64,000 bases of DNA, taken from positions 660 through 64,659 of the forward strand of contig DAOUBP010000038.1 of the NCBI GenBank assembly GCA_034432655.1, in the 5' to 3' direction. Position numbers and translations under genes: made by a program. The notes under the pieces are model-generated. The model did no database searches. It was not told the DNA's origin and saw nothing but the letters and a program-made list of their open reading frames with translations. Source of the stretch: Anaerolineae bacterium. Lineage in GTDB: Bacteria; Chloroflexota; Anaerolineae; CG2-30-64-16. Of this stretch, positions 4,091 to 26,931 are shown in pieces. Each line of letters opens with the position of its first letter. Within the stretch, counting starts at the first letter, position 1.

Positions 4091-5239
4091 CTACAAGGGG
4101 CATGTGAGCCGGCGCAGCGCGTCGGCCAGCACCTCGACCCCGCGCAGCCATTCGGCGATTTCCACGTGCTCCTCCGGCGTGTGGTCCAGGCTGCTGTCGC
4201 CGGGGCCATACGCCAGGATGGGGCAGTTCCAGACCGGGCCGACCACGTTCATGTCCGAGGTGCCGGTTTTGAGCAGGAAGTTGGGCGCGCCGCCCTGGCC
4301 CCGCACCGCTGCGACGAAGGCGCGCACCAGGGGCGTATTCTTCTCCGCCCGGTAGGCACGTTCTTCGCCGCTGAACCGGAATGTGCCGTTGCCATCCACG
4401 CTCACCAACAGCCGCTTGAAGGTCTCCGGTGTCACGCTCTCCGGCAAGCGGAACCCCATGCGCATCTCGGCGGTCTCCAACAAACCGTCGTCGCTGGAGG
4501 CAAAGTGTCGCAGCGACGGCTGCACCTGCTCCCAGACCCGTTCCCGGCCGGTATTCAGCTCCTCGACCAGCTCCTGCACCCGCCGCCAGTAGGCGAAGGC
4601 CATCTCCGGCGCGCTGGCGGCCGGCCCGGCTGTGTGGCTCATTAGGCGCTGGAACTCCACATCGGCCAGCAGACGGCCCTTGTAGCCCAGCGCCACACGC
4701 TGCCAGCCGGTCGGCTCGCCGATCACCACCATGTCCGGCTTGCGCCGCCGCGCCAGATGGCGCGCGCCTTTCGAGGTCGCGGCCTCTTCTTCTACCGCGC
4801 CGGCGATCACGATGCGCCAGCCGGGCTGCGGGCCCACCAGCGCCGCGGCCGTGGCGAACGCGGCCAGCGGCCCCTTTGCGTCCACCGCGCCGCGGCCGTA
4901 CAACCGCCCGCCGCGTTCGTGGACACGCGGGAACCCGCGCACCGTGTCAATGTGGCCGAGGAGGAGGAGTTCTTGCGGATTGCGTACTGCATACTGCGTA
5001 TTGCGTACTACGGATTGTGGATTGGGGATTGGTTCAGCTTCCAGCTTCCAGTTTCCAGCGCCCAGCACGCCGACCGCGTTGCCGGCCGCGTCGCGGTGGG
5101 CGGAGAAGCCGTGGTCGCGCAGCCAGGCGACCAGGTGCTCGACGGCCGGCCGTTCCTCGCCGGAGGGGGAGGGGATTTCGAGCAGTTCGCGCAACAGGCG
5201 CAGGCCGCTGGCGATGATGGCTTGGGAGGATTCCCTCAT
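4091..5239 (-). CDS. lysK: M20-family deacylase: [LysW]-lysine hydrolase LysK / acetylornithine deacetylase-like; contains an in-frame 28-aa insertion encoded by 12 tandem heptamers
   Basis: LLLGHIDTV, GRGAVDAKG, context at the end of the LysW-AAA cluster; start at MRESSQ with RBS gaggtg; insertion [27 protein letters not shown] = DNA 4975-5062. Confidence 0.7.
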   Translation of the reverse strand: MRESSQAIIASGLRLLRELLEIPSPSGEERPAVEHLVAWLRDHGFSAHRDAAGNAVGVLGAGNWKLEAEPIPNPQSVVRNTQYAVRNPQELLLLGHIDTVRGFPRVHERGGRLYGRGAVDAKGPLAAFATAAALVGPQPGWRIVIAGAVEEEAATSKGARHLARRRKPDMVVIGEPTGWQRVALGYKGRLLADVEFQRLMSHTAGPAASAPEMAFAYWRRVQELVEELNTGRERVWEQVQPSLRHFASSDDGLLETAEMRMGFRLPESVTPETFKRLLVSVDGNGTFRFSGEERAYRAEKNTPLVRAFVAAVRGQGGAPNFLLKTGTSDMNVVGPVWNCPILAYGPGDSSLDHTPEEHVEIAEWLRGVEVLADALRRLTCPL

Positions 5240-5322
5240 GGTACACCTCAGTTTTGGTCGTTGACTGGAGTCGAGGCTGTGCGAAGCCTCCTTTAGGATT
5301 AGCCGGTCTCTCTGTCCGGGCG

Positions 5323-6399
5323 TCAAAGCGCCTGAAGGCTCGATTCCGTTGTTCTCCTGATGATTTCATCCGTTACCTGATCCGTGCTGGCCCGTCCGCT
5401 CAGGTCGGGTGTGACGATGCCGGCAGCGACCGTGGCTTGCACCGCATGGCGGACGCGCGTCGCGGCCGCGGCCTGTCCCAGGTGATCCAGCAGCAGCGCG
5501 GCCGACAGGATCGCGCCGATCGGGTTGGCGATGCCGCGGCCGGCGATGTCGGGCGCGCTGCCGTGCACCGGCTCGAACACCGCGACCTGTCCTGCGCCCA
5601 CATTGGCCGACGGCGCTACGCCCAGCCCGCCCGCCAGCCCCGCGGCCAGGTCCGACAGGATGTCGCCGAAGAGGTTGGTGGTGACGATGACGTCGAAGCG
5701 GGTCGGGTCCTTCGCCAGCCACATCGCGGCCGCGTCCACCAGCAGCTCCTCGACCTGCACGTCCGGGTAGTCCCGCGCGACGGCCAGGCAGCTTTCCCGG
5801 AACAGGCCGTCGGTGAGTTTGAGGACGTTGGCTTTGTGGATAACGGTAACTTGGGGCCTGGTAGATTGGTAATTTGGTTCCAGAGATTGAACATTTGTGG
5901 TTTGCAGTTTGCGGTTTGCTCGTTGCCGTGCTTGCTCAAACGCCACTCTTGCGATGCGCTCGCTGGCCTGGCGGGTGATAACGCGCTCGACGATGGCGGT
6001 ATCGGGGTCCTCCCAACGCTCGCGGCCGCTGTAGAGGCCCTCGGTGTTTTCGCGCACGATGAGCAGGTCAATCGGCCGGCCGCCCGGCACCAATTGGACG
6101 GTCGGCCGCAGGTTGGCGTAGAGGTCGAAGTGGCGGCGCAGGGCCAGGATGGGGGAGCGGTAGCCTGCCACCTCTCCTGTTGTTGGCGACTGTGTAGCGC
6201 CGAACAGCGTCCCATCGGCCGCGGCCACGGCGCGCAGGGTCTCGTCGGGCAGGGCTGTGCCGCGGCGGAGGAAGCAGTCCCAGCCGGCATCGGCCTCGAC
6301 GAAGCGCACATCCGGCAGCACGGCCGCCAGCACGCGCGCCGCCGCGGGGATCACCTCCCGGCCGACGCCGTCGCCGGGGATCAGACAGATCGTTGGCAT
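5323..6399 (-). CDS. homoisocitrate / 3-isopropylmalate dehydrogenase family (beta-decarboxylating dehydrogenase), with in-frame repeat-encoded insertion
   Basis: [48 protein letters not shown]; ~24-aa insert [23 protein letters not shown] between ARQR and [10 protein letters not shown] encoded by heptamers ~5838-5925. Confidence 0.85.
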
Positions 6400-6466
6400 A
6401 GAGTCTTCGCTTTCAAAATGCTCATAGATTCCGGAACTCACCTGATCACGTATCACGCACCACGCC

Positions 6467-8506
6467 TCACGCCTCACGTCTCAACATCGCCAACAGCCCG
6501 CCCGCGTCCAAGATCGCCGCGACCGACGCGGAGAACGGCGGGAACGGGAATTCGCCGGCCGCGCAGGTCACAACGCCGCGGCCCAGGTCAATGCTGATGT
6601 GTGCACCGGGTTGGATAGCTGCAACCGCCTCGGGGCAGACGATGGGGAGGAGGCCGTTGTTGACAGCGTTTCGGAAGTAGATCCTTGCGAAGGACGCCGC
6701 AATGATAACCCGAATCCCCGCCGCGCGCAAACAGGTGACGGCCTGCTCACGACTGGAGCCGCAGCCGAAGTTGCGGCCGGCTACGATGATGTCGCCCGGT
6801 TGAACATTGGCCGCGAAGGTCGGGTCGAGGTCCTCCAGCGCGTGGCGGGCCATCTCGGCTTCTTCCTTGATGGTGTAGGTGTATTTGCCCGGGAAGATGA
6901 CGTCGGTGTTGACATCGTCGCCGTAGACCCAGGCGCGGCCGGAGAGGATGTTGGATGTTCGATGTTCGATGGACGATGGAGCGCGTTGCGTATTGCGTAT
7001 TGCGTACTTCGTATCTGGGGTAACCTTTTGTTCTGGAATCGAGGCTTTAGCCGGTTTCGTGGGCGAAGCAGTAGACCGGCTCACATCTCGATCCCAGTCG
7101 TCTTGATTCGGAATCGAGGCTTTAGCCGGTTTGGTGGATGAAGCATCTGACCGGCTAAGGCCTCGAGTCCAGTCGCGCAATTCCTCCATGTACGGGATCC
7201 GCCCCAGGGCCGCGCTGGCGGCGACGACCGCAGGGCTGGCCAGGTAGATCCGGGCGTCGGGGTTGCCCATGCGGCCGCGGAAGTTGCGGTTGGCGGTGCT
7301 GATGACGGTCTCGCCCGCGGCGGGGATGCCCAGGTGGTTGCCCATGCACGGGCCGCAGCCGGGCGTGCCGATCAGCGCGCCGGCTTCGAGGAAGGTCTGG
7401 ATGTAGCCCGCGGCCAGCGCATCCTGCAGCACCTGACTCGATGCCGGGACAACCAGCAACCGCGTGCCCGCGGCAACGCGGCGCACCCGTCCGTCCGGCC
7501 CGCGCAGTGCCGCGGCGGCCTCTGCCAGGTCCTCCAGCCGGCCGTTGGTGCAGGTGCCGATGAAGGCCTGGTGGACCGGGGTGCCCGCCACCTCGGACAG
7601 CGGCACGACGTTTGCGGGGTTGTGGGGCACGGCGACGACCGGCTCCAACGCGCTCAGGTCCACGGTATGACGGGCGATGTAGGGCGCGTCCGGGTCGGGG
7701 TAGAGCGCGAGCGCAGCAAGGTTCATAGGGACGACTTCAGTCGTCCCGCCGCGCTCGGAACGGCTGAAGCCGTTACGACGAACTGCCAACCGTTCCGCCA
7801 GCCACGCGAACACCGCCTCGTCCGGTTCCAGGTACGCGCTTTTCGCGCCCGATTCGGCCAGCAGGTTGGGGAGCACCATCCGGCTCTCGATGCTCAGCGC
7901 CCGCAGCCCCGGCCCGCCGATCTCGATGGCCCGGTAGATGCCCGCCTCGGGGCCGAGCAGCTTCAGCAGCCACAGGCCCAGGTCTTTGGCGGTGACTCCG
8001 GGCCGCAGGCTGCCGATCAGGTCCACGCGGATCGTCTCCGGCACGCGCAGCCAGAGCTCGCCGGTGGCCCACAGCGCGGCAACCTCGCTGCGGCCGATGC
8101 CCGCGCCGAACGCGCCCAGCCAGCCGAAGTGCGTGGTGTGGCTGTCTGCGCCCAGGATGAGCTGGCCGGGCAGCACCAGCGCCTCCTCGCTGAGCACCTG
8201 ATGGCAGATGCCCCGGCCGACGTCGAAGAAGTGCGTGATGCCCTGCTCGGCCACAAAGCGGCGCACCTCGGCGTGGTTCTGCGCGTGCTCGGCCGTGGGC
8301 GCGGGCACGGCGTGATCCAGGGTGATGGCCAGCCGCTCCGGGTAGCGCACCCGGTCGCGCCCCAGGCTGCGGAAGAGCCGGGCGATAGCTGCGGTGTTGT
8401 CGTGGCTCAGCACGATGTCGGGCCGGGCGTCCACGATCTGGCCGATGGCCGCGTGCGGCAGCCCCGCCGCGCGGGCCAGGGCTTTTTGGGCAAAAGTTTG
8501 TGACAT
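6467..8506 (-). CDS. homoaconitase / 3-isopropylmalate dehydratase large subunit and small subunit read as one ORF, joined in-frame by a ~80-aa repeat-derived linker
   Basis: N-part [15 protein letters not shown]...SHTTHFG...GTCTNGR...GCGPCMG (large subunit); C-part [19 protein letters not shown]...[11 protein letters not shown] (small subunit); no stop and no ATG/GTG/TTG start between them; linker DNA 6950-7200 = heptamers + two palindromic elements. The 40 codons upstream of ATG 8506 (to 8626) lie in a palindromic repeat and were excluded. Confidence 0.7.
6950..7034. repeat. tandem heptamers (ATGTTGG/ATGTTCG/ATGGACG... then GCGTATT/GCGTACT) inside leuC-leuD linker
   Basis: direct reading, period 7. 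Confidence 0.7.
7035..7169. repeat. two tandem copies of a ~60-bp palindromic MITE/REP-like element GGAATCGAGGCTTTAGCCGGT-N19-ACCGGCTAAGGCCTCGAGTCC (third copy at 62678-62738)
   Basis: 16-bp inverted arms; copy A right arm degenerate; lies in-frame inside the leuCD ORF. Confidence 0.7.
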
Positions 8507-8537
8507 GCAACGCCTTTCTGATTCATGCGCAGGGTCA

Positions 8538-8607
8538 GCATCCTCAGATGCGGTTTTCGGGCAAAGCCGTTCGCATCGGGGGCAAAGCCGTTCGCATCTG
8601 AGGATGC
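8538..8607. repeat. palindromic element: GCATCCTCAGATGCG ... CGCATCTGAGGATGC with internal direct repeat GCAAAGCCGTTCGCATC x2
   Basis: perfect 15-nt inverted arms; same family as 1713-1777. Confidence 0.65.
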
Positions 8608-8643
8608 TCACTCCACAATCTACCAATTTACCAGGTTACCAAC

Positions 8644-9799: not shown

Positions 9800-9993
9800 T
9801 CCGTGATGCGTATTGCGTACTGCGTACTGCGTATTGCGTACTGCGTACTACGTATTGCGTATTGCGTACTGCGTGATGCATGATGCGTTAATTCGCTGAT
9901 TCGTCATTCGTCCTTCGTCCTTCGTCCTTCGTCCTTCGTCCTTCGTCATTCGTCCTTCGTCATTCGTCCTTCGTCCTTCGTCATTCGTCCTTC
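9800..9993. repeat. intergenic tandem arrays: CGTATTG/CGTACTG heptamers (9805-9885) then CGTCCTT/CGTCATT heptamers (9895-9993)
   Basis: direct reading, period 7, two families. Confidence 0.8.
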
Positions 9994-9994
9994 G

Positions 9995-11212
9995 TCAAGT
10001 AAGTGCAGTTTCGATCGCCTCTGCCACCCGCTCCAAATCCTCCTCCTCGATCACCAGCGGCGGGAGGAGGCGGAGGACGGTGGCGCCGGCGGGGAGGGCG
10101 AGGACGCCCAGGGCTTGCAGCCGCTGCAGGATGGGCGTGACTTTGACCTTCAGCTCGATGCCGATCAGCAGGCCCAGGCCACGCACCTCGCGGATGAGCG
10201 GCGAGTTGATGGCGCGCAGGCGGGCTTGCATGTGCTCGCCCAGCCGCGCGGCGCGTTGGGGGAGGATTTCGGTTGTAATCGTATCAATCGCCGCCAGCGC
10301 GGCCGCGCAGGCCAGCGGGTTGCCGCCGAAGGTGCTGCCGTGGGTCATGGGGCGAATGCCGGCGACACGCGGCCCGATCAGGCAGGCGCCCATCGGCAGG
10401 CCGCCAGCCATGGACTTGGCGACCGTCATCAGATCGGGAGCCAGGCCATAGTGCTCGCAGGCGAACAGCCGGCCCGTGCGACCGAAGCCGGTTTGGATCT
10501 CGTCCAGGATCAGCAGCGCGCCCCGCTCCCAGCAGACGCGCTGCGCCGTCTCCAGGAACCCGGGCGTCGCCGGGTGGACCCCGCCTTCGCCCTGCACGAC
10601 TTCCAGCAGCACCGCGGCCGTCTGGTCGGTCACCGCCCGTTCCAGCGCCGCACTGTCGTTGAACGGGATGTGGCTGAAGCCGGGCACCAGCGGCTCGAAG
10701 GGCTGGCGGTACTCGCGGTTCCACGTCGCCGACAGCGCGCCCAGAGTGCGACCGTGGAAGCCGCGCATGGCCGCCACGATCCCGCTGCGGCCGGTGCTCA
10801 GCCGGGCGAACTTGATGGCCGCCTCCACCGCCTCCGCACCGGAGTTGCACAGGAACGCGCGCTCCAGCCCGGCCGGCGCGATCGCGGTCAGGCGGGCCAG
10901 CAGCTCGGCGCGGCGGTCGTTGTAGAAGATCTCCGGGCAGGAGATGAGGGTGGCTGCCTGCCCGGCGATGGCCGCGACCACTGCCGGGTGCGCGTGGCCC
11001 AGGTTGGCCGCGCCCTGCCCGCCCACGCAGTCAATGTACTCCCGGCCCTCCGCGTCCCAGACCCGCGCGCCCTGTCCTCGCACGATCGCCAGCGGCCGCT
11101 TGGGGTAAACGCCGGAGGTGTGGCGCGATTCGAGGGAGAGGATGGTAGATTGGTAGGTTGGTAGATTGGTAGATTGGTAGGTTGGTGGGTGGATGGGACG
11201 AGTGTCAGTCAT
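9995..11212 (-). CDS. lysJ: class-III aminotransferase: [LysW]-aminoadipate semialdehyde / acetylornithine aminotransferase
   Basis: [45 protein letters not shown]; N-terminal ~30 aa ([22 protein letters not shown]) is encoded by the GGTAGRTT octamer array so the true start is uncertain. Confidence 0.8.
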
Positions 11213-12098: not shown

Positions 12099-12197
12099 GA
12101 GTGCTCCTGTTGCGTATTGCGTACTGCGTATTGCGTACTGCGTATCTTCTCCAGGCGGTACGCAGTACGAAGTACGAAGTACGAAGTACGGAGTATG
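12099..12197. repeat. inverted heptamer arrays (GCGTATTGCGTACTG... vs GTACGCAGTACGAAGTACG...) forming a long hairpin between lysY stop and lysZ start
   Basis: direct reading. Confidence 0.7.
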
Positions 12198-13253
12198 CTA
12201 TATCGGGTGCAGTCCTGTAGACTTCAACCCAGCCGTTTCGTCCAGCCCGCACATCAGGTTCATGCACTGCACCGCGCTGCCGGCCGCGCCTTTGCCCAGG
12301 TTATCAATGGCGGCCAGGGCCACCAGGCGGCCGGTGGCCGGCTCCAGCTCCCAGCCGACGTCGGCCAGGTTCGTGCCGGCCAGCAGCTTCGGCTCCGGGT
12401 GGCGGTAGATGCCGCCCCGCTCGTGGACGATGCGCACGAACGGCTCCTGGCCGTAGGCCGCGCGGTAGGCCCGCCAGAGGTCTTTGTCGCTCAGGCCGGG
12501 CTGCACCCACGCGTGCGCGGTCGCCAGCACCCCGCGCACCAGCTCGATCGAGGTCACCGACAGATGCACATCTCCGATCCCCAACACCTGCCGCACCTCG
12601 GCCTGGTGGCGGTGGCCGGTGGGCGCGAAGGAGCGCACCGCGCCGGCCCGCTCCGGATGATGCGACGCCGCGTTCGCGGCCGCGCCCCCCTCGGACGACC
12701 CTGCCTTCACGTCCACGATCACCGGTCGGTCGGCCCGCAGCAGCCCGGCCCGGACCAGCGGCAGCAGCGCCAGGACGGCGGCGGTCGCGTTGCAGCCGAC
12801 GCCGGAAGCATATTGCGTACTGCGTATTGCGTCGCGGTTGGCTTCGGGGAGGCCGTAGGTGAAGCGTGAGAGCCAGTCGGGGGCGGCGTGGGGTTCGCCG
12901 TAGGTGGCTTGATAGGTTTGCGGGTCGGAGAGGCGGAAGTCGGCGGAGAGGTCAATGATGCGGGGGGCGAGGCGGGCAAAGTGCTCGATGCGGCGCTGGG
13001 CCTGGCCGTGGGGCAGCGCCAGGAACAGCACGTCGCACGGGGCCAGCTCGCTGAGGGCCGTGAAGCGTATGGGCGGGATCCGGCCGCCCACGGGCCGCAG
13101 GTTGGGGTGCAGGCTGTGCACGTACTCGCCCGCGTGCGACTCGGAGGTCACCTGCGCCAGCTCGACGGCCGGGTGGCCCAACAGCAGCCGGATCAGCTCG
13201 CCCCCGCCGTAGCCGGAGCCGCCGACGATGGAGACGCGGAGGGGGGCGGTCAT
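12198..13253 (-). CDS. lysY: N-acetyl-gamma-glutamyl-phosphate reductase family: [LysW]-aminoadipyl-phosphate reductase
   Basis: [32 protein letters not shown] (active-site Cys region), NLGKGAAG; in-frame RSTQYA insertion from heptamers at ~12805-12840. Confidence 0.85.
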
Positions 13254-14212
13254 GGGCGGGCCTCCGGGGTGGTATTGCGTATTGCGTATTGCGTACTGCT
13301 TGCCGTTGAATGAGCAGTTCTCTCATGGTCTACGCAGTATGCAGTACGCAGTACGTACTCTGCCACCCGCGCCGGGATATCCACCCCCGTCGTGTGAATG
13401 CTGTTGCGGAACTCCATGGTGTGGTTCACCTCGTTGACCAGGAAGCCGCGATCGGGGTCTTCCAGCACGTCAATCGCGAGGACGCCGCCGCCCACGGCTG
13501 CCGCGGCCCGGCGGCAGAGGTCGTCCAGCTCCGGCGTCACCGGGCAGTTGGAGGCCTGGCCCCCGCGCGCGGTGTTGGTGATCCAGTGCGTCGAGCCCCG
13601 GTAGATCGCCGCGATGGTCTCGTCGCCCACGACGAAGGCGCGGATGTCGCGGCCGGGCTTGCGGATGTATTCCTGGATGTAGAAGATGCTGTGCAGGTAG
13701 TTGCCCAGCACCTCCTTGTGTTCCAGGATCGCCTCGGCCGCGTCCCGGTCGTTGATGCGGGCCAGCAGTCGGCCCCACGAGCCGACCAGCGGCTTGAGCA
13801 CGACCGGGTAGCCCAGTTCTTCGATGGCTTGCAAGGCCGCTTCGGGGGTGAAGGCCACGCGCGTGCGAGGCTGCGGGATGCCGGCCTCGGCCAGCGCCGC
13901 GCTGGTCAGCAGCTTGTCCCAGCACGTGGCCGCGGTGCGATAGGTGTTGACCGTGGGGATCCCGGCCGCCTGGAGCAGCCGCAGCGCATAGATGCCGCGT
14001 GCCGCGCTGACGGAGCGCTCGAGGACGATGTCGGCGCGGATGTTGTAGGGCGAGATTCCATCTCGCCCCACCGGCAGCACCAGCTCATCATCGTTTACCA
14101 GCTGCACCGTCGCGCCGGTGGCTTCCAGCGCGGCCAGCAGCAGCTTCTCCTCCACGCGGATGCGGGAGACGATCATCGCGACGGTGATCTGGGAGTGACC
14201 GTTCTTGCTCAT
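13250..14212 (-). CDS. lysX: RimK-type ATP-grasp ligase: alpha-aminoadipate--LysW ligase
   Basis: ATP-grasp motifs ([27 protein letters not shown]); start MSKNGHS 4 nt overlapped with lysW stop; C-terminal ~30 aa ([27 protein letters not shown]) repeat-encoded. Confidence 0.8.
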
Positions 14213-14907: not shown

Positions 14908-15003
14908 CGGGGGCGGATGGGAGTCGAACCCACCTTGGACGCTTCCTAGGCGCCCATCACCGGTTTTGAAGACCGGGGCCGCCACCGGACGACAACCACC
15001 CCC
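14908..15003 (-). tRNA. selC: tRNA-Sec (selenocysteine), anticodon UCA, 96 nt, 8/5 acceptor/T-stem architecture with long variable arm
   Basis: GGGGGTGG-TT-GTCGTCCGGTGGCGGC-C-CCGGT-CUUCAAA-ACCGG-[26-nt variable arm]-GTGGG-TTCGACT-CCCAT-CCGCCCCC-G; aligns block-for-block with E. coli selC (TCGTCTCCGGTG..., CTTCAAA, TTCGACTCC). Confidence 0.85.
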
Positions 15004-18061: not shown

Positions 18062-18258
18062 GAGAACCTCCGTACCTTTACTGAATACTGCGTATTGCGT
18101 ACTGCGTATTGCGTACTGCGTATTGCGTACTAAGTATTCCAAACTGCGTGCTGTTATGCAGCTTACCTCGCAACTGCGCCATACGGAGTACGGAGCACGG
18201 ACTACGAAGTACGGACTACGGAGTACGAAGTACGGACTACGGAGTACGCAATGCGTCG
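18062..18258. repeat. heptamer arrays in both orientations between acyl-CoA DH start and CoA-transferase B stop
   Basis: direct reading. Confidence 0.7.
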
Positions 18259-19338
18259 TTATCTGATGAGCAATCCCGTCGGATCAATTTCCCTCAAGAT
18301 CCTTCGTTCCTCCTCCGTCGGCGCGGCGGTGACGGCCAGCGGCTCGGCCACCGGGATCGGGAAGCTGCTGTTGGCCTGGATCTCCTCCACGGTGACGCCG
18401 GGGTGAACGGCCAATAGATACATGGTCCTGGTCGCTTCGTCGAAGCCGTAGACGCCCAGCTGCGTGATCACCCGATAGGGGCCGGTGTTCGCCGGCAGCC
18501 CTGCGCGCTCACGTGCGCCCGGACCGGTCAGATAGCCTGGGGTGGTGATAAAGTCCAGCTTCTCGGCGAACTTACGGCGGTCCTGGCGCATGATGATGAT
18601 GGTGCGATGGCAGGCCGAGCCTACGTCATTTGCCCCGCCGCTGCCGGGCAATCGGACCGTAGGGTGCTCCCAATCGCCGATCACGGTGGTGTTGATGTTG
18701 CCGTACGGGTCAATCTGCGCGGCGCCCAGGAAGCCGTAGTCCAGATGGCCGGCCTGGGCCATGGACATCACGTCGTGCATGCTCGAGGCGGCCACAGCCT
18801 GATGGAAGGTGCGCGAATCGCCCACGGAGATGGGCAGCACCGGGATGTGGGGGCCGATGCCGCCGGCTTCGAAGATAATCAACAGGCCCGGCGCGTGGGT
18901 GCGCTGCGCCAGCATGGCGGCGATCATAGGCAGCCCTGTGCCGACGAACACTGATTTACGGTCTTCCAGCAGGTGTGCCGCGACACAGGCGAGCAGCTCG
19001 GTGGAGGAATAAGGAGACGTGGAAGCAGGGAGACGCGAAGATTCTCCGCGTCCCCGCGTCTCCGCCTCCCCGTGTCCCCGCGTCCCCGCGTCCCCGCGTC
19101 CCCACGTCTCCGCCTCCCCGTGTCCCCGCGTCTCCGCGTCCCCGTGTCCCCGCGTCTCCGCGTCCCCGTGTCCCCGCGTCCCCGCGTCCCCGTGTCCCCG
19201 CGTCTTCGCGTCTCCGCGTCCCCGCATCCCCGCGTCCCCGTGTCCCCGCGTCTCCGCCTCCCCGCGTCCCCGCGTCTCCGCCTCCCCGCGTCCCCGCGTC
19301 TCCGCGTCCCCGCGCGCCTGCATCATCGGATCCTCCAT
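18259..19338 (-). CDS. CoA-transferase subunit B (glutaconate/3-oxoacid CoA-transferase beta-like) with ~80-aa N-terminal extension encoded by the TCCCCGCG octamer array
   Basis: VFVGTGLPMIAAMLAQRTHAPGLLIIFEAGG, AQIDPYGNINTTVIGD, GSGGANDVGS; no in-frame ATG/GTG/TTG between the repeat and the conserved domain. Confidence 0.7.
   Translation of the reverse strand: MEDPMMQARGDAETRGRGEAETRGRGEAETRGHGDAGMRGRGDAKTRGHGDAGTRGHGDAETRGHGDAETRGHGEAETWGRGDAGTRGHGEAETRGRGESSRLPASTSPYSSTELLACVAAHLLEDRKSVFVGTGLPMIAAMLAQRTHAPGLLIIFEAGGIGPHIPVLPISVGDSRTFHQAVAASSMHDVMSMAQAGHLDYGFLGAAQIDPYGNINTTVIGDWEHPTVRLPGSGGANDVGSACHRTIIIMRQDRRKFAEKLDFITTPGYLTGPGARERAGLPANTGPYRVITQLGVYGFDEATRTMYLLAVHPGVTVEEIQANSSFPIPVAEPLAVTAAPTEEERRILREIDPTGLLIR
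19016..19320. repeat. ~37 tandem octamers TC(C/T)CCG(C/T)G
   Basis: direct reading, period 8; translates as (R/G)GDAETRG in CoA-transferase B frame. Confidence 0.85.
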
Positions 19339-19700
19339 TGCTCAGAGTGGCTGATCATGTTCACCAGTTTGCCCAGCACGTTGTCGTATGCGGCCGATAT
19401 TTCATTGCCCACGGAGGGAGCCAGATAGCTACACTTGACGGAAAACTCCAGCCAGACCTGGGTTTCAGCAGCCTCTGCTTCGGAATCGCTGAGCTTGCTG
19501 CTGAAAGCGTTGGGATATCGTCGTTTCCGCCAGGCCTCAGCTATGTTTGCGCAGACGGACCGTGAGGATCGTCGAATCTGGTCAGTTAGCGAGTAACGTT
19601 CTTCCTTCGGGAAGTCTTTTGTCAACTCAAAGATCCGCATCGCCAGCTCCATCGCCAGCTTGTACACATCCAACTCACGAAAATCCCGAATATTGCTCAT
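19323..19700 (-). CDS. four-helix-bundle protein (TIGR02436 / 23S rRNA intervening-sequence protein family)
   Basis: MSNIRDFRELDVYKLAMELAMRIFELTKDFPKEERYSLTDQIRRSSRSVCANIAEAWRKR...; start with RBS ggaggg; ORF-track N-extension (to 19844) is octamer-encoded. Confidence 0.8.
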   Translation of the reverse strand: MSNIRDFRELDVYKLAMELAMRIFELTKDFPKEERYSLTDQIRRSSRSVCANIAEAWRKRRYPNAFSSKLSDSEAEAAETQVWLEFSVKCSYLAPSVGNEISAAYDNVLGKLVNMISHSEQWRIR

Positions 19701-19703
19701 ACT

Positions 19704-19912
19704 CCCTCCTCTCCGCGTCCCCGCGTCTCCGCGTCCCCGCGTCTCCGCGTCCCCGCGTCCCCGCGTCCCCGCGTCTCCGCGTCCCCGCGTCTCCGCGTCC
19801 CCGCGTCCCCGCGTCCCCGCGTCTCCGCGTCTCCGCGTCTCCACGTCCCCGCGTCTCCGCGTCTCCGCGTCCCCGCGTCCCCGTGTCTCCGCGTCTCCGC
19901 GTCTCCGCGTCT
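19704..19912. repeat. ~26 tandem octamers TC(C/T)CCGCG (same family and orientation as 19016-19320)
   Basis: direct reading. Confidence 0.85.
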
Positions 19913-19914
19913 CC

Positions 19915-26331: not shown

Positions 26332-26931
26332 CTAGTCCTCCCGGCCGGGCAAAGGATCTTCACCTGGGTGCGGCGTCACTCCACTTTCATCCCGGCCGTC
26401 GGGGCTGGCCCCGGAACCCGGCTCCGCACCAGGGGGCGACATCTGCCCGCTTTCATCCAGGGCGTCGGGGCTTGCCCCAACCTCCTCGACCCCGGGGCTG
26501 GCCCCGGAACCCGGCTCCGCACCAGGGGGCGACATCCGCCCGCTTTCATTCAGGGCGTCAGGGCTTGCCCCAACCTCCTGGACCTCGCGGCTGGCCCCGG
26601 AACCCGGCTCCGCACCAGGGGGGGTCGTCAATTCGCGCATGACCGAATCGCGGATCGCCCGGCCGGGGTCGCGGGCGGCCATGGCCAGCGCGGTGGCATC
26701 TTTGGCAACTTCCTTGATCTCTTCCAGCGGGCGGCTGATCTCCTGGTCAGGGTCCAGCGCCTGGCGCGCCTTCTCCAGCTCGCGCGAGAACTCGCGCGTC
26801 GCTTTGCGCATCTGCCGCATGCTCCTGCCAAGCTTCGCGCCGATTTCCGGCAGCTTATCGGGGCCAAAAACGGCTAGCGCCAGGATCAGGATGATGATCA
26901 GTTCAAACGGCCCGATTCCGAGAATTTCCAC
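26332..26931 (-). CDS. tatA: Sec-independent translocase TatA/TatB with long acidic/Pro-rich repeat tail
   Basis: MEILGIGPFELIIILILALAVFGPDKLPEIGAKLGRSMRQMRKA. Confidence 0.85.
   Translation of the reverse strand: MEILGIGPFELIIILILALAVFGPDKLPEIGAKLGRSMRQMRKATREFSRELEKARQALDPDQEISRPLEEIKEVAKDATALAMAARDPGRAIRDSVMRELTTPPGAEPGSGASREVQEVGASPDALNESGRMSPPGAEPGSGASPGVEEVGASPDALDESGQMSPPGAEPGSGASPDGRDESGVTPHPGEDPLPGRED

Follow-up and report, generated by a model that had tools for sequence, protein, structure and literature searches.

A probable translated remnant of seven- and eight-nucleotide tandem repeats in a surface loop of a Chloroflexota homoisocitrate dehydrogenase

In a 64,000-nt stretch of an Anaerolineae (Chloroflexota) genome (assembly GCA_034432655.1, contig DAOUBP010000038.1; this whole stretch is hereafter "the window"), the gene for a predicted homoisocitrate dehydrogenase (HICDH) is interrupted in frame by a short segment of unusual composition. 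We consider it likely that this insert is a translated and tolerated remnant of 7- and 8-nt tandem repeats, lodged in a permissive surface loop and evolving by slippage under a filter imposed by reading frame and stop codons. The window insert is one instance of a clade-wide phenomenon rather than an isolated event: related genomes carry comparable repeats at the same site, with units that differ between lineages and copy numbers that differ between near-identical contigs. The features on which the analysis centers are as follows.

5323..6399, minus strand: homoisocitrate dehydrogenase gene of a LysW-type alpha-aminoadipate lysine cluster, assigned from PDB matches, PF00180, a structural model, synteny and invariant residues
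5851..5919, minus strand: the insert, low in GC and poor in G, with an A/C-rich sense strand and all three sense frames open
5893..5926, minus strand: heptamer block GCAAACN, three exact units (5900-5919) plus two degenerate flanking units, encoding (R)ANRKLQTT(N)
5859..5897, minus strand: diverged 21-nt (7-codon) duplication TNVQSLE / PNYQSTR, 5863-5876 against 5884-5897 at a spacing of 21 (79%, repeat search)

An in-frame segment of foreign composition

The insert proper covers codons 161-183 (69 nt) of an open reading frame (ORF) that, counted from its ATG, comprises 358 amino acids and a stop. A preliminary description, made from the DNA alone, had proposed an in-frame extra segment at the loop between ARKRRKK and VxxxHKANVL, and alignments bear out both its presence and its position. 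Against Thermus HICDH (3asj/1x0l; phmmer search of the PDB), the window protein aligns with a 19-residue gap in the Thermus sequence between ...RPRK and TLHIAHKANVL, and the loop, which has 26 residues in the window, has only 6 (RKRRGR/RRRK) in the more distant Chloroflexota orthologs L006, L009, L010, L017 and L019. The surplus is therefore real, with a net size of 19-20 residues instead of the approximately 24 first estimated; the coordinates initially assigned to it (5838-5925) are right except at the start, which takes in 13 nt of conserved VTVIH codons.

Both the composition and the codon usage of the insert are foreign to the surrounding HICDH gene. Its GC content is 0.45, against 0.69 in the remaining gene, a difference that widens at third codon positions (0.39 versus 0.85), and it contains 12% G and 39% A where the rest of the gene contains 34% and 16%, respectively. 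Stop codons are found in none of the three sense frames and in two of the three antisense frames.

Composite repeat structure of the insert

On the coding strand, the insert is laid out as CGGCAACGA GCAAACC GCAAACT GCAAACC ACAAATG TTCAATCTCTGGA ACCAAATT ACCAATCT ACCAGGCCCCAA, and it is a composite of heptamers and a diverged duplication with octamers rather than a pure heptamer run. The three exact GCAAACN units at 5900-5919, in which the seventh base varies, are accompanied on either side by one copy with 2 mismatches, and these 3 overlapping matches compare with 0.03 expected; Tandem Repeats Finder alone recovers 2.9 copies of GTTTGCA. The promoter-distal part (5859-5878) consists of about 2.5 octamers of the ACCAATCT family with 2 mismatches, where 0 are expected. 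These above-chance matches to heptamers and octamers support the origin in a short tandem-repeat array that had been proposed, and the unit families involved, GCAAACN and ACCAATCT, are indeed distinct from the CGTAYTG family. The further characterization of the segment as a run of G(Y)(R)GTTT-type heptamers applies to its promoter-proximal third to half, which reads GCAAACN on the coding strand, and fails for the remainder, where the diverged 21-nt duplication with octamers lies.

Arrays of the ACCAATCT family recur elsewhere in the window, at 8614-8633 and 11143-11186, and no second GCAAACN locus was found within it. Since the window array has now decayed to 3 exact heptamers and diverged copies, it should be fairly stable.

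Two other sources of the segment were considered and dropped. An RNA or hairpin element was rejected because the insert folds no better than its shuffled versions (z=+1.15) and because an Rfam scan of window positions 1-24 kb returned nothing besides a selenocysteine tRNA, and hence no family at the insert. Local seeding of GCAAACN from ancestral CGC-AAA-CGC (RKR) codons has some appeal on visual inspection but is not required, as GCAAACN arrays occur at many unrelated loci.

The insertion site is a hot spot among orthologs

To place the insert in its family we used the 120 closest homologs of the window protein, all of them Chloroflexota/Anaerolineae-type metagenome proteins with 64-85% identity. 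Their lengths range from 331 to 422 amino acids, and the family has three insertion hot spots, the main one being the site of the window insert, where 59 of the 120 have at least 5 extra residues in low-occupancy alignment columns. The additional residues of these orthologs are frequently periodic (ISESANQR, SPFAIRH/SFAIR, STNLPIYQ, SSFQLPA and SEIRNPK, each in n copies, and NTQYAIRN), and the DNA beneath them consists of tandem GCGAATCA, TCGCCAT, TACCAATC, CAGCTTC, GAAATCC or AATACGC units. The peptides have a period of 7 or 8 residues because three 7-nt or 8-nt units make up one period. T makes up only 4-21% of the insert's sense strand in all orthologs examined, a scarcity that keeps every frame free of stop codons.

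Insert type and core phylogeny agree incompletely. P0002 and P0003, which at 10-12% core divergence are the closest relatives, carry an unrelated, CAGCTTC-derived segment at this site, and the architecture of the window insert reappears in P0014, P0015 and P0019, at about 20% core divergence. The inserts of the window and of L082 (P0014) align across both blocks and across a non-repetitive junction, ACCAAT(C/A)TACCAGGCC, and therefore share ancestry, with the 21-nt duplication/octamer block of the window homologous to the (TACCAATC)n block of L082. The window insert is thus not private to its genome. Conservation in distant homologs, which the preliminary description had named as evidence against an insertion, was looked for and not seen: distant homologs lack the segment, and within the clade the site is filled by hypervariable, mostly unrelated repeat translations.

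Two further observations concern the inserts of the relatives. By eye, paired arrays in some orthologs form imperfect inverted repeats (GGATTGC/GAAATCC in L003, GCGAATCA/TCGCCAT in L090), which is not the case for the window insert. A second class of in-frame insert, with peptides resembling ...SPP(D/S)PLS...GG(K/Q)G(V/G)GG(L/S)G, is present in LysJ (324-363) and LysX (48-80) of L089 and, at one loop, in the HICDH proteins P0016/P0138, P0039 and P0037/P0164. Examples include PTGILSAQELTSPPDPLSCEERGNMTPPSLGGKGVGGLG and a 24-amino-acid duplication that distinguishes P0016 from P0138. This class, which probably derives from a different, GC-rich repeat element, is not present in the window copies of these genes.

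Natural variants differ by whole repeat units

Pairs of closely related sequences show the site changing in steps of its repeat units. Between L081 and L088 there is an indel of 24 nt, exactly 3 x GCGAATCA, along with 8 substitutions in 1.2 kb, and, within 90%-identity clusters, P0031 versus P0123 differs by +ISESANQR and P0028 versus P0143 by -7 amino acids. L084 and L085, short-read assemblies of sister samples, are identical across 1.2 kb save for one GAAATCC unit missing from L084; this loss shifts the frame, so that gene calling yields separate ORFs of 200 and 160 amino acids. The L085 allele comprises 5.7 GAAATCC copies. Both tolerated (three-unit, in-frame) and destructive (one-unit) outcomes hence occur in nature.

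Two other candidate cases were discarded. A second frameshift, in P0157/L091, was set aside as evidence of slippage, being caused by a 1-nt indel outside the array that is probably a long-read error. The pair L082 and L083 does not represent an array change: their HICDH sequences are identical, and their neighboring genes differ in length through a 219-nt element downstream of the M20 peptidase gene. This insertion, at approximately 4650-4870 in L083 relative to position ~4838 in L082 (the contigs are 99.7% identical), lies directly after the M20 gene, has inverted termini (CTGAGCGGAACAGCCGGTTTTTGGC...GCCCAAAAACCGCCGGAACTCCGCTCAG), and alters the C-terminus of the peptidase (359 versus 386 amino acids). 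It has the look of a miniature inverted-repeat transposable element (MITE).

Period-7/8 arrays characterize the clade

Arrays with a period of 7 or 8 nt are found at a density of 2.3 per 10 kb in the window and 6.6 per 10 kb in close relatives, against 0.21 in other Chloroflexota loci and 0.10 in non-Chloroflexota loci, which puts the clade 10-60 times above other genomes in density. For other periods, the four sequence sets have arrays at much the same frequency. Unit families recur across independent genomes of the clade, and arrays of GCAAACN x4 were detected on at least 120 metagenome contigs; on the GC-rich contigs among these, read-through as ANRKLQTAN/ANGKRQTAN is common, and its position is frequently a gene N-terminus.

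Within the window, arrays lie mostly at gene boundaries, with in-frame internal ones in LysK, HICDH, the homoaconitase linker and LysY, and one near the N-terminus of LysJ. Internal arrays are shorter than those at boundaries (median copy number 3.6 versus 5.25; one-sided Mann-Whitney p=0.005), a pattern that selection against long hypermutable tracts within ORFs would produce. Most indels that separate the lysine genes of the window from those of L089 (GCA_964551735.1), the nearest relative with long context, fall within repeat-derived segments.

The LysK-like M20 gene (4091-5326, minus strand) contains three adjoining heptamer arrays, TGCGTAC, GGATTGG and CAGCTTC, at 4973-5066, all read through in frame; L089 has a different segment of similar length there, retaining only TQYAVRN. 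The large and small subunits of homoaconitase are fused in one 719-amino-acid ORF (6467-8626, minus strand), joined by a linker at 6947-7175 that is built from repeat DNA, namely GATGTTC and TTGCGTA heptamers and a 75-nt tandem duplication (7035-7175) encoding two copies of ...S(T/S)KPAKASIP.... This linker differs from that of L089 by a 19-amino-acid indel, and the fused proteins of relatives measure 651-727 amino acids. At the 5' end of the LysJ-like gene (11139-11190), 5.5 copies of the ACCAATCT octamer lie at or near the N-terminus, where L089 has YAVRNTP. In the LysY-like gene (12814-12832), a TGCGTAC array of 2.7 copies corresponds to IRSTQYAS, against LRTTHHAS in L089, with length unchanged.

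Between genes, a CACGCCT/ATCACGC heptamer array (6441-6483) overlaps the last codons and the stop of the homoaconitase gene and takes up a large part of the 67 nt that separate that gene from the HICDH start codon. The intergenic arrays at 9807-9996, 12110-12195, 13272-13355 and 18089-18248 often consist of two adjoining blocks with different units, e.g. TGCGTAC x9.7 and TTCGTCC x13.9. By eye, the two blocks of some such pairs are nearly reverse complements of each other (TTGCGTA/GTACGAA; GTATTGC/TACGCAG), an arrangement suggestive of long, imperfect hairpins.

The host enzyme and the structural placement of the insert

The window enzyme is assigned as a homoisocitrate dehydrogenase by sequence, fold and genomic context, the last of which distinguishes it from isopropylmalate and isocitrate dehydrogenases; its substrate specificity is a prediction. 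Its top solved relatives in the PDB search are Thermus thermophilus HICDH (3asj/1x0l; E=1.6e-99, residues 4-348) and also Schizosaccharomyces pombe HICDH, and the beta-decarboxylating dehydrogenase domain PF00180 is precomputed for P0001, the database protein identical to it. Curated NCBIfam cut-offs are not reached by the window protein: the best match, to the subfamily model TIGR02088, scores 381.3 bits where 409.8 are required, and the equivalog models AksF and AksF2 score about 376 bits against cut-offs of 500-540. Several of these matches, including those to TIGR02088 and AksF2, are broken in two at the insert.

L089 has a complete LysW-type cluster, in the order LysW, LysX, LysY, LysZ, LysJ, homocitrate synthase, fused homoaconitase, HICDH and LysK, and the window is collinear with it at 84-94% amino-acid identity. 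In an alignment of 66 orthologs, Y123, K189, D222, D246, D250, R88, R98 and R116 are invariant; we take these to correspond to Y139, K185, D217, D241, D245, R94, R104 and R132 of Thermus isopropylmalate dehydrogenase, that is, to the catalytic Tyr and Lys, the three metal-binding Asp and the substrate-binding Arg residues.

An AlphaFold2 model of the window protein has a mean predicted local distance difference test score (pLDDT) of 89.3 and a predicted template modeling score (pTM) of 0.91, and Foldseek matches it to 1x0l_A (E=1e-41, TM-scores 0.85/0.91) and 3ty3_A (TM-score 0.88). In this model, helix 143-168 extends into the first eight residues of the insert (161-168; pLDDT 81 for block 161-170), residues 169-182 form a coil (mean pLDDT 56 for block 171-180), and the chain then enters strand 183-188, whose end lies at the HK of the invariant HKANVL motif. 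The insert is accordingly modeled as a helix extension and a low-confidence surface coil, with the HICDH fold kept. All three insertion hot spots of the family are on coils of the model, and S. pombe HICDH has extra residues in the same loop (PDB alignment). Because of these two observations and the invariance of the catalytic residues, the loop is taken to be intrinsically permissive, and the enzyme is most likely functional.

Origin and persistence of the insert

The history that we regard as likely would start from clade genomes rich in low-GC period-7/8 arrays whose units belong to a small common set. Once an array had arisen in a gene, or spread into it, replication slippage (slipped-strand mispairing) would add or remove units; a gain or loss of one or two would shift the frame and be purged, and net lengths divisible by three would persist, typically in three-unit steps of 21 or 24 nt. 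The orientation retained would be the one that is free of stops in every frame, with a T-poor sense strand. Its product would be a hydrophilic, largely disordered loop rich in Q, N, T, S, R and P, which would lengthen the preceding helix and sit N-terminal of the beta-strand ending at the catalytic lysine, so that the enzyme would still work. For the window genome itself, we infer that slippage was the mechanism; the insert is presumably translated and near-neutral, and selection on frame and stop codons would account for its orientation and length.

Several observations weigh against this account. An exact-flank, variable-gap scan of metagenome contigs returned no near-identical contig that would show variation of the window's own array. 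The GC content of the insert is still 0.45 even though an ortholog at about 20% core divergence shares a homologous copy; neutral decay under GC pressure might have raised this value, which hints at renewal or at selection on the DNA. Plain local slippage also leaves unexplained why a few unit families recur across loci and genomes. The lasting low GC and the common unit repertoire therefore leave a small but real chance that a lineage-specific, sequence-selective process keeps these arrays, either through array propagation or gene conversion or through a function of A/C-rich unstructured tracts at the protein or RNA level. If so, such a maintenance process would retain a small low-GC unit repertoire in a genome of 65-70% GC, both between genes and inside core enzymes, and copies within genes, like the window insert, would be either incidental or put to use in switching biosynthetic pathways reversibly.

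A switch of this kind, in which the array is kept since one-unit slippage reversibly toggles lysine biosynthesis in the population (contingency, or phase variation), could draw on the gene-splitting one-unit deletion of L084, whose contig is otherwise 100% identical to the intact allele, and on the presence of arrays in several genes of the same lysine cluster. We nonetheless find it very improbable for the window: in its short, degenerate tract 3 units are exact, their seventh base varying, and it lies mid-gene (residue 161 of 358) in a housekeeping enzyme and not toward the 5' end of a variable or surface gene, while arrays are just as common between genes, and the shortness of those inside genes suggests selection against mutability. 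Transposition in frame of a small non-autonomous element, similar to a MITE or to a Rickettsia palindromic element (RPE), would fit the same unit families being found at many loci in several genomes, the modular combination of left and right blocks among orthologs, a GC-rich palindrome between the two arrays of L081, and the 219-nt element with inverted termini that is polymorphic between L082 and L083, which indicates that small mobile elements exist in the clade. A repeat search around the window insert, however, found no inverted or direct repeats bounding it, and so neither terminal inverted repeats nor a target-site duplication; there is no fixed-length consensus copy, variation proceeds by whole repeat units, and the insert strand lacks above-chance structure, all of which make such an element decidedly improbable.

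Protein-level selection might instead have shaped the loop as a module with a function of its own, for example in oligomer contact, regulation or solubility, given that the site is occupied in most clade members, that fungal HICDH is extended there too, and that part of the insert is modeled as a helix extension with a pLDDT of about 81. Such a role seems very improbable to us for a segment whose sequence and length are hypervariable even among close relatives (that of the nearest relative, 15-17 residues long, is unrelated), whose peptides are direct translations of DNA repeats, and whose remaining loop is low in model confidence. Finally, repeats can be misassembled, and one related contig is frameshifted, though by the 1-nt indel outside its array that was probably a long-read error. 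That the window insert is an assembly artefact, part of a pseudogene, or a sequence removed before the mature protein (by an intron, an intein or translational bypass) has nonetheless next to no likelihood: comparable in-frame inserts recur across dozens of independent assemblies, the reading frame is unbroken and its catalytic residues are invariant, and a segment of 69 nt (23 residues) is far too small for an intein (above 130 amino acids) or a group I/II intron, with neither an Rfam match other than the selenocysteine tRNA in the first 24 kb nor RNA structure to suggest one.

Relation to known repeat systems and significance

According to PMC4679880 (summarising Mrazek et al.) and PMC4692102, heptanucleotides are the most abundant class of long simple sequence repeats in many bacterial genomes, polymerase-related slippage has been proposed as their cause, and units that are not multiples of three are generally kept out of ORFs. 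Described heptamer families include the cyanobacterial short tandemly repeated repetitive sequences (STRR), GGGNATC in Xanthomonas and Nostoc, and TAACTGA in Beggiatoaceae (PMC4692102, PMC4679880, PMC2700814), and Geobacter metallireducens harbors four-heptamer elements (GGACCGG x4) at 49 inter- and intragenic sites (PMC2700814). The arrays of the present clade resemble these bacterial long repeats (units of 5-11 nt) in their head-to-tail 7-nt units, their few dispersed families, their variable copy number and their occurrence in large GC-rich or filamentous-lineage genomes, as well as in their location mostly between genes and over gene ends and only occasionally within genes (PMC4692102, PMC4679880, PMC2700814; window census). 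They differ in mixing 8-nt with 7-nt units and in being read through in frame at hot-spot loops of core enzymes, whereas the families described before are depleted within ORFs or inevitably end them. The unit families of the clade also match no described STRR, GGGNATC or TAACTGA unit; the cyanobacterial STRR units, which we take to be CCCCAGT, TTGGTCA and CAACAGT, have no counterpart among them.

Other systems offer partial parallels. Rickettsia palindromic elements are selfish DNA inserted in frame into protein-coding genes and tolerated in conserved housekeeping proteins at surface-compatible positions, and the window insert resembles them as short repeated DNA carried in frame, most likely without destruction of function. 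RPEs, however, are palindromic mobile elements of fixed length (~100-150 nt), while the window insert is built of tandem units without inverted termini or target duplication, and orthologous inserts change length unit by unit. The phase-variable contingency loci of Haemophilus, Neisseria and Campylobacter likewise involve intragenic tandem repeats in which slippage shifts the frame, as in the one-unit frameshift allele of a relative, but their tracts are long and perfect, with units mostly of 1-5 nt, and lie toward the 5' end of genes for surface or restriction-modification functions, whereas that of the window is short, degenerate and mid-gene in a biosynthetic enzyme. A likeness at the protein level is to Plasmodium falciparum, in which low-complexity, slippage-driven, fast-evolving hydrophilic inserts occupy surface loops of conserved housekeeping enzymes. 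The two share hydrophilic loops of biased composition in conserved enzymes; those of Plasmodium follow its AT bias and consist of codon (3n) repeats, while those described here run against the GC bias, with 7/8-nt units that cycle through three frames.

Our literature search on heptanucleotide repeats in Chloroflexi/Chloroflexota found no report of them, nor of core enzymes with recurrent loop hot spots at which 7/8-nt arrays are read in frame. Heptanucleotide repeats are common yet almost unstudied, and the prevailing view is that coding regions exclude repeats whose unit length is not divisible by three; here, the whole lysine-biosynthesis operon of a Chloroflexota lineage bears in-frame 7/8-nt arrays. 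This lineage thus offers a natural system for studying how microsatellites with non-triplet units gain entry to essential genes and stay there, how repeats create disordered loops and even domain linkers, as in the fused homoaconitase, and what upholds a common low-GC unit repertoire against strong GC pressure. In practical terms, such inserts depress the scores of curated families (here below NCBIfam cut-offs), split gene calls, and can mislead the annotation and phylogeny of metagenome-assembled genomes.

Additional features of the window

Beyond the lysine cluster, the window contains two long octamer arrays that are rich in GC (0.80) and unlike the low-GC families in composition: CCGCGTCC x33.6 at 19046-19314, which falls within the 5' end of a stop-to-stop ORF (18259-19341), and TCTCCGCG x25.6 at 19710-19914. 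A GC-rich 93-nt tandem repeat of 2.4 copies, 95% identical, occupies an apparently non-coding gap between ORFs at 26400-26622. The selenocysteine tRNA gene recovered in the Rfam scan (RF01852; 71.9 bits, E=3.5e-13) lies at 14909-15003 on the minus strand.

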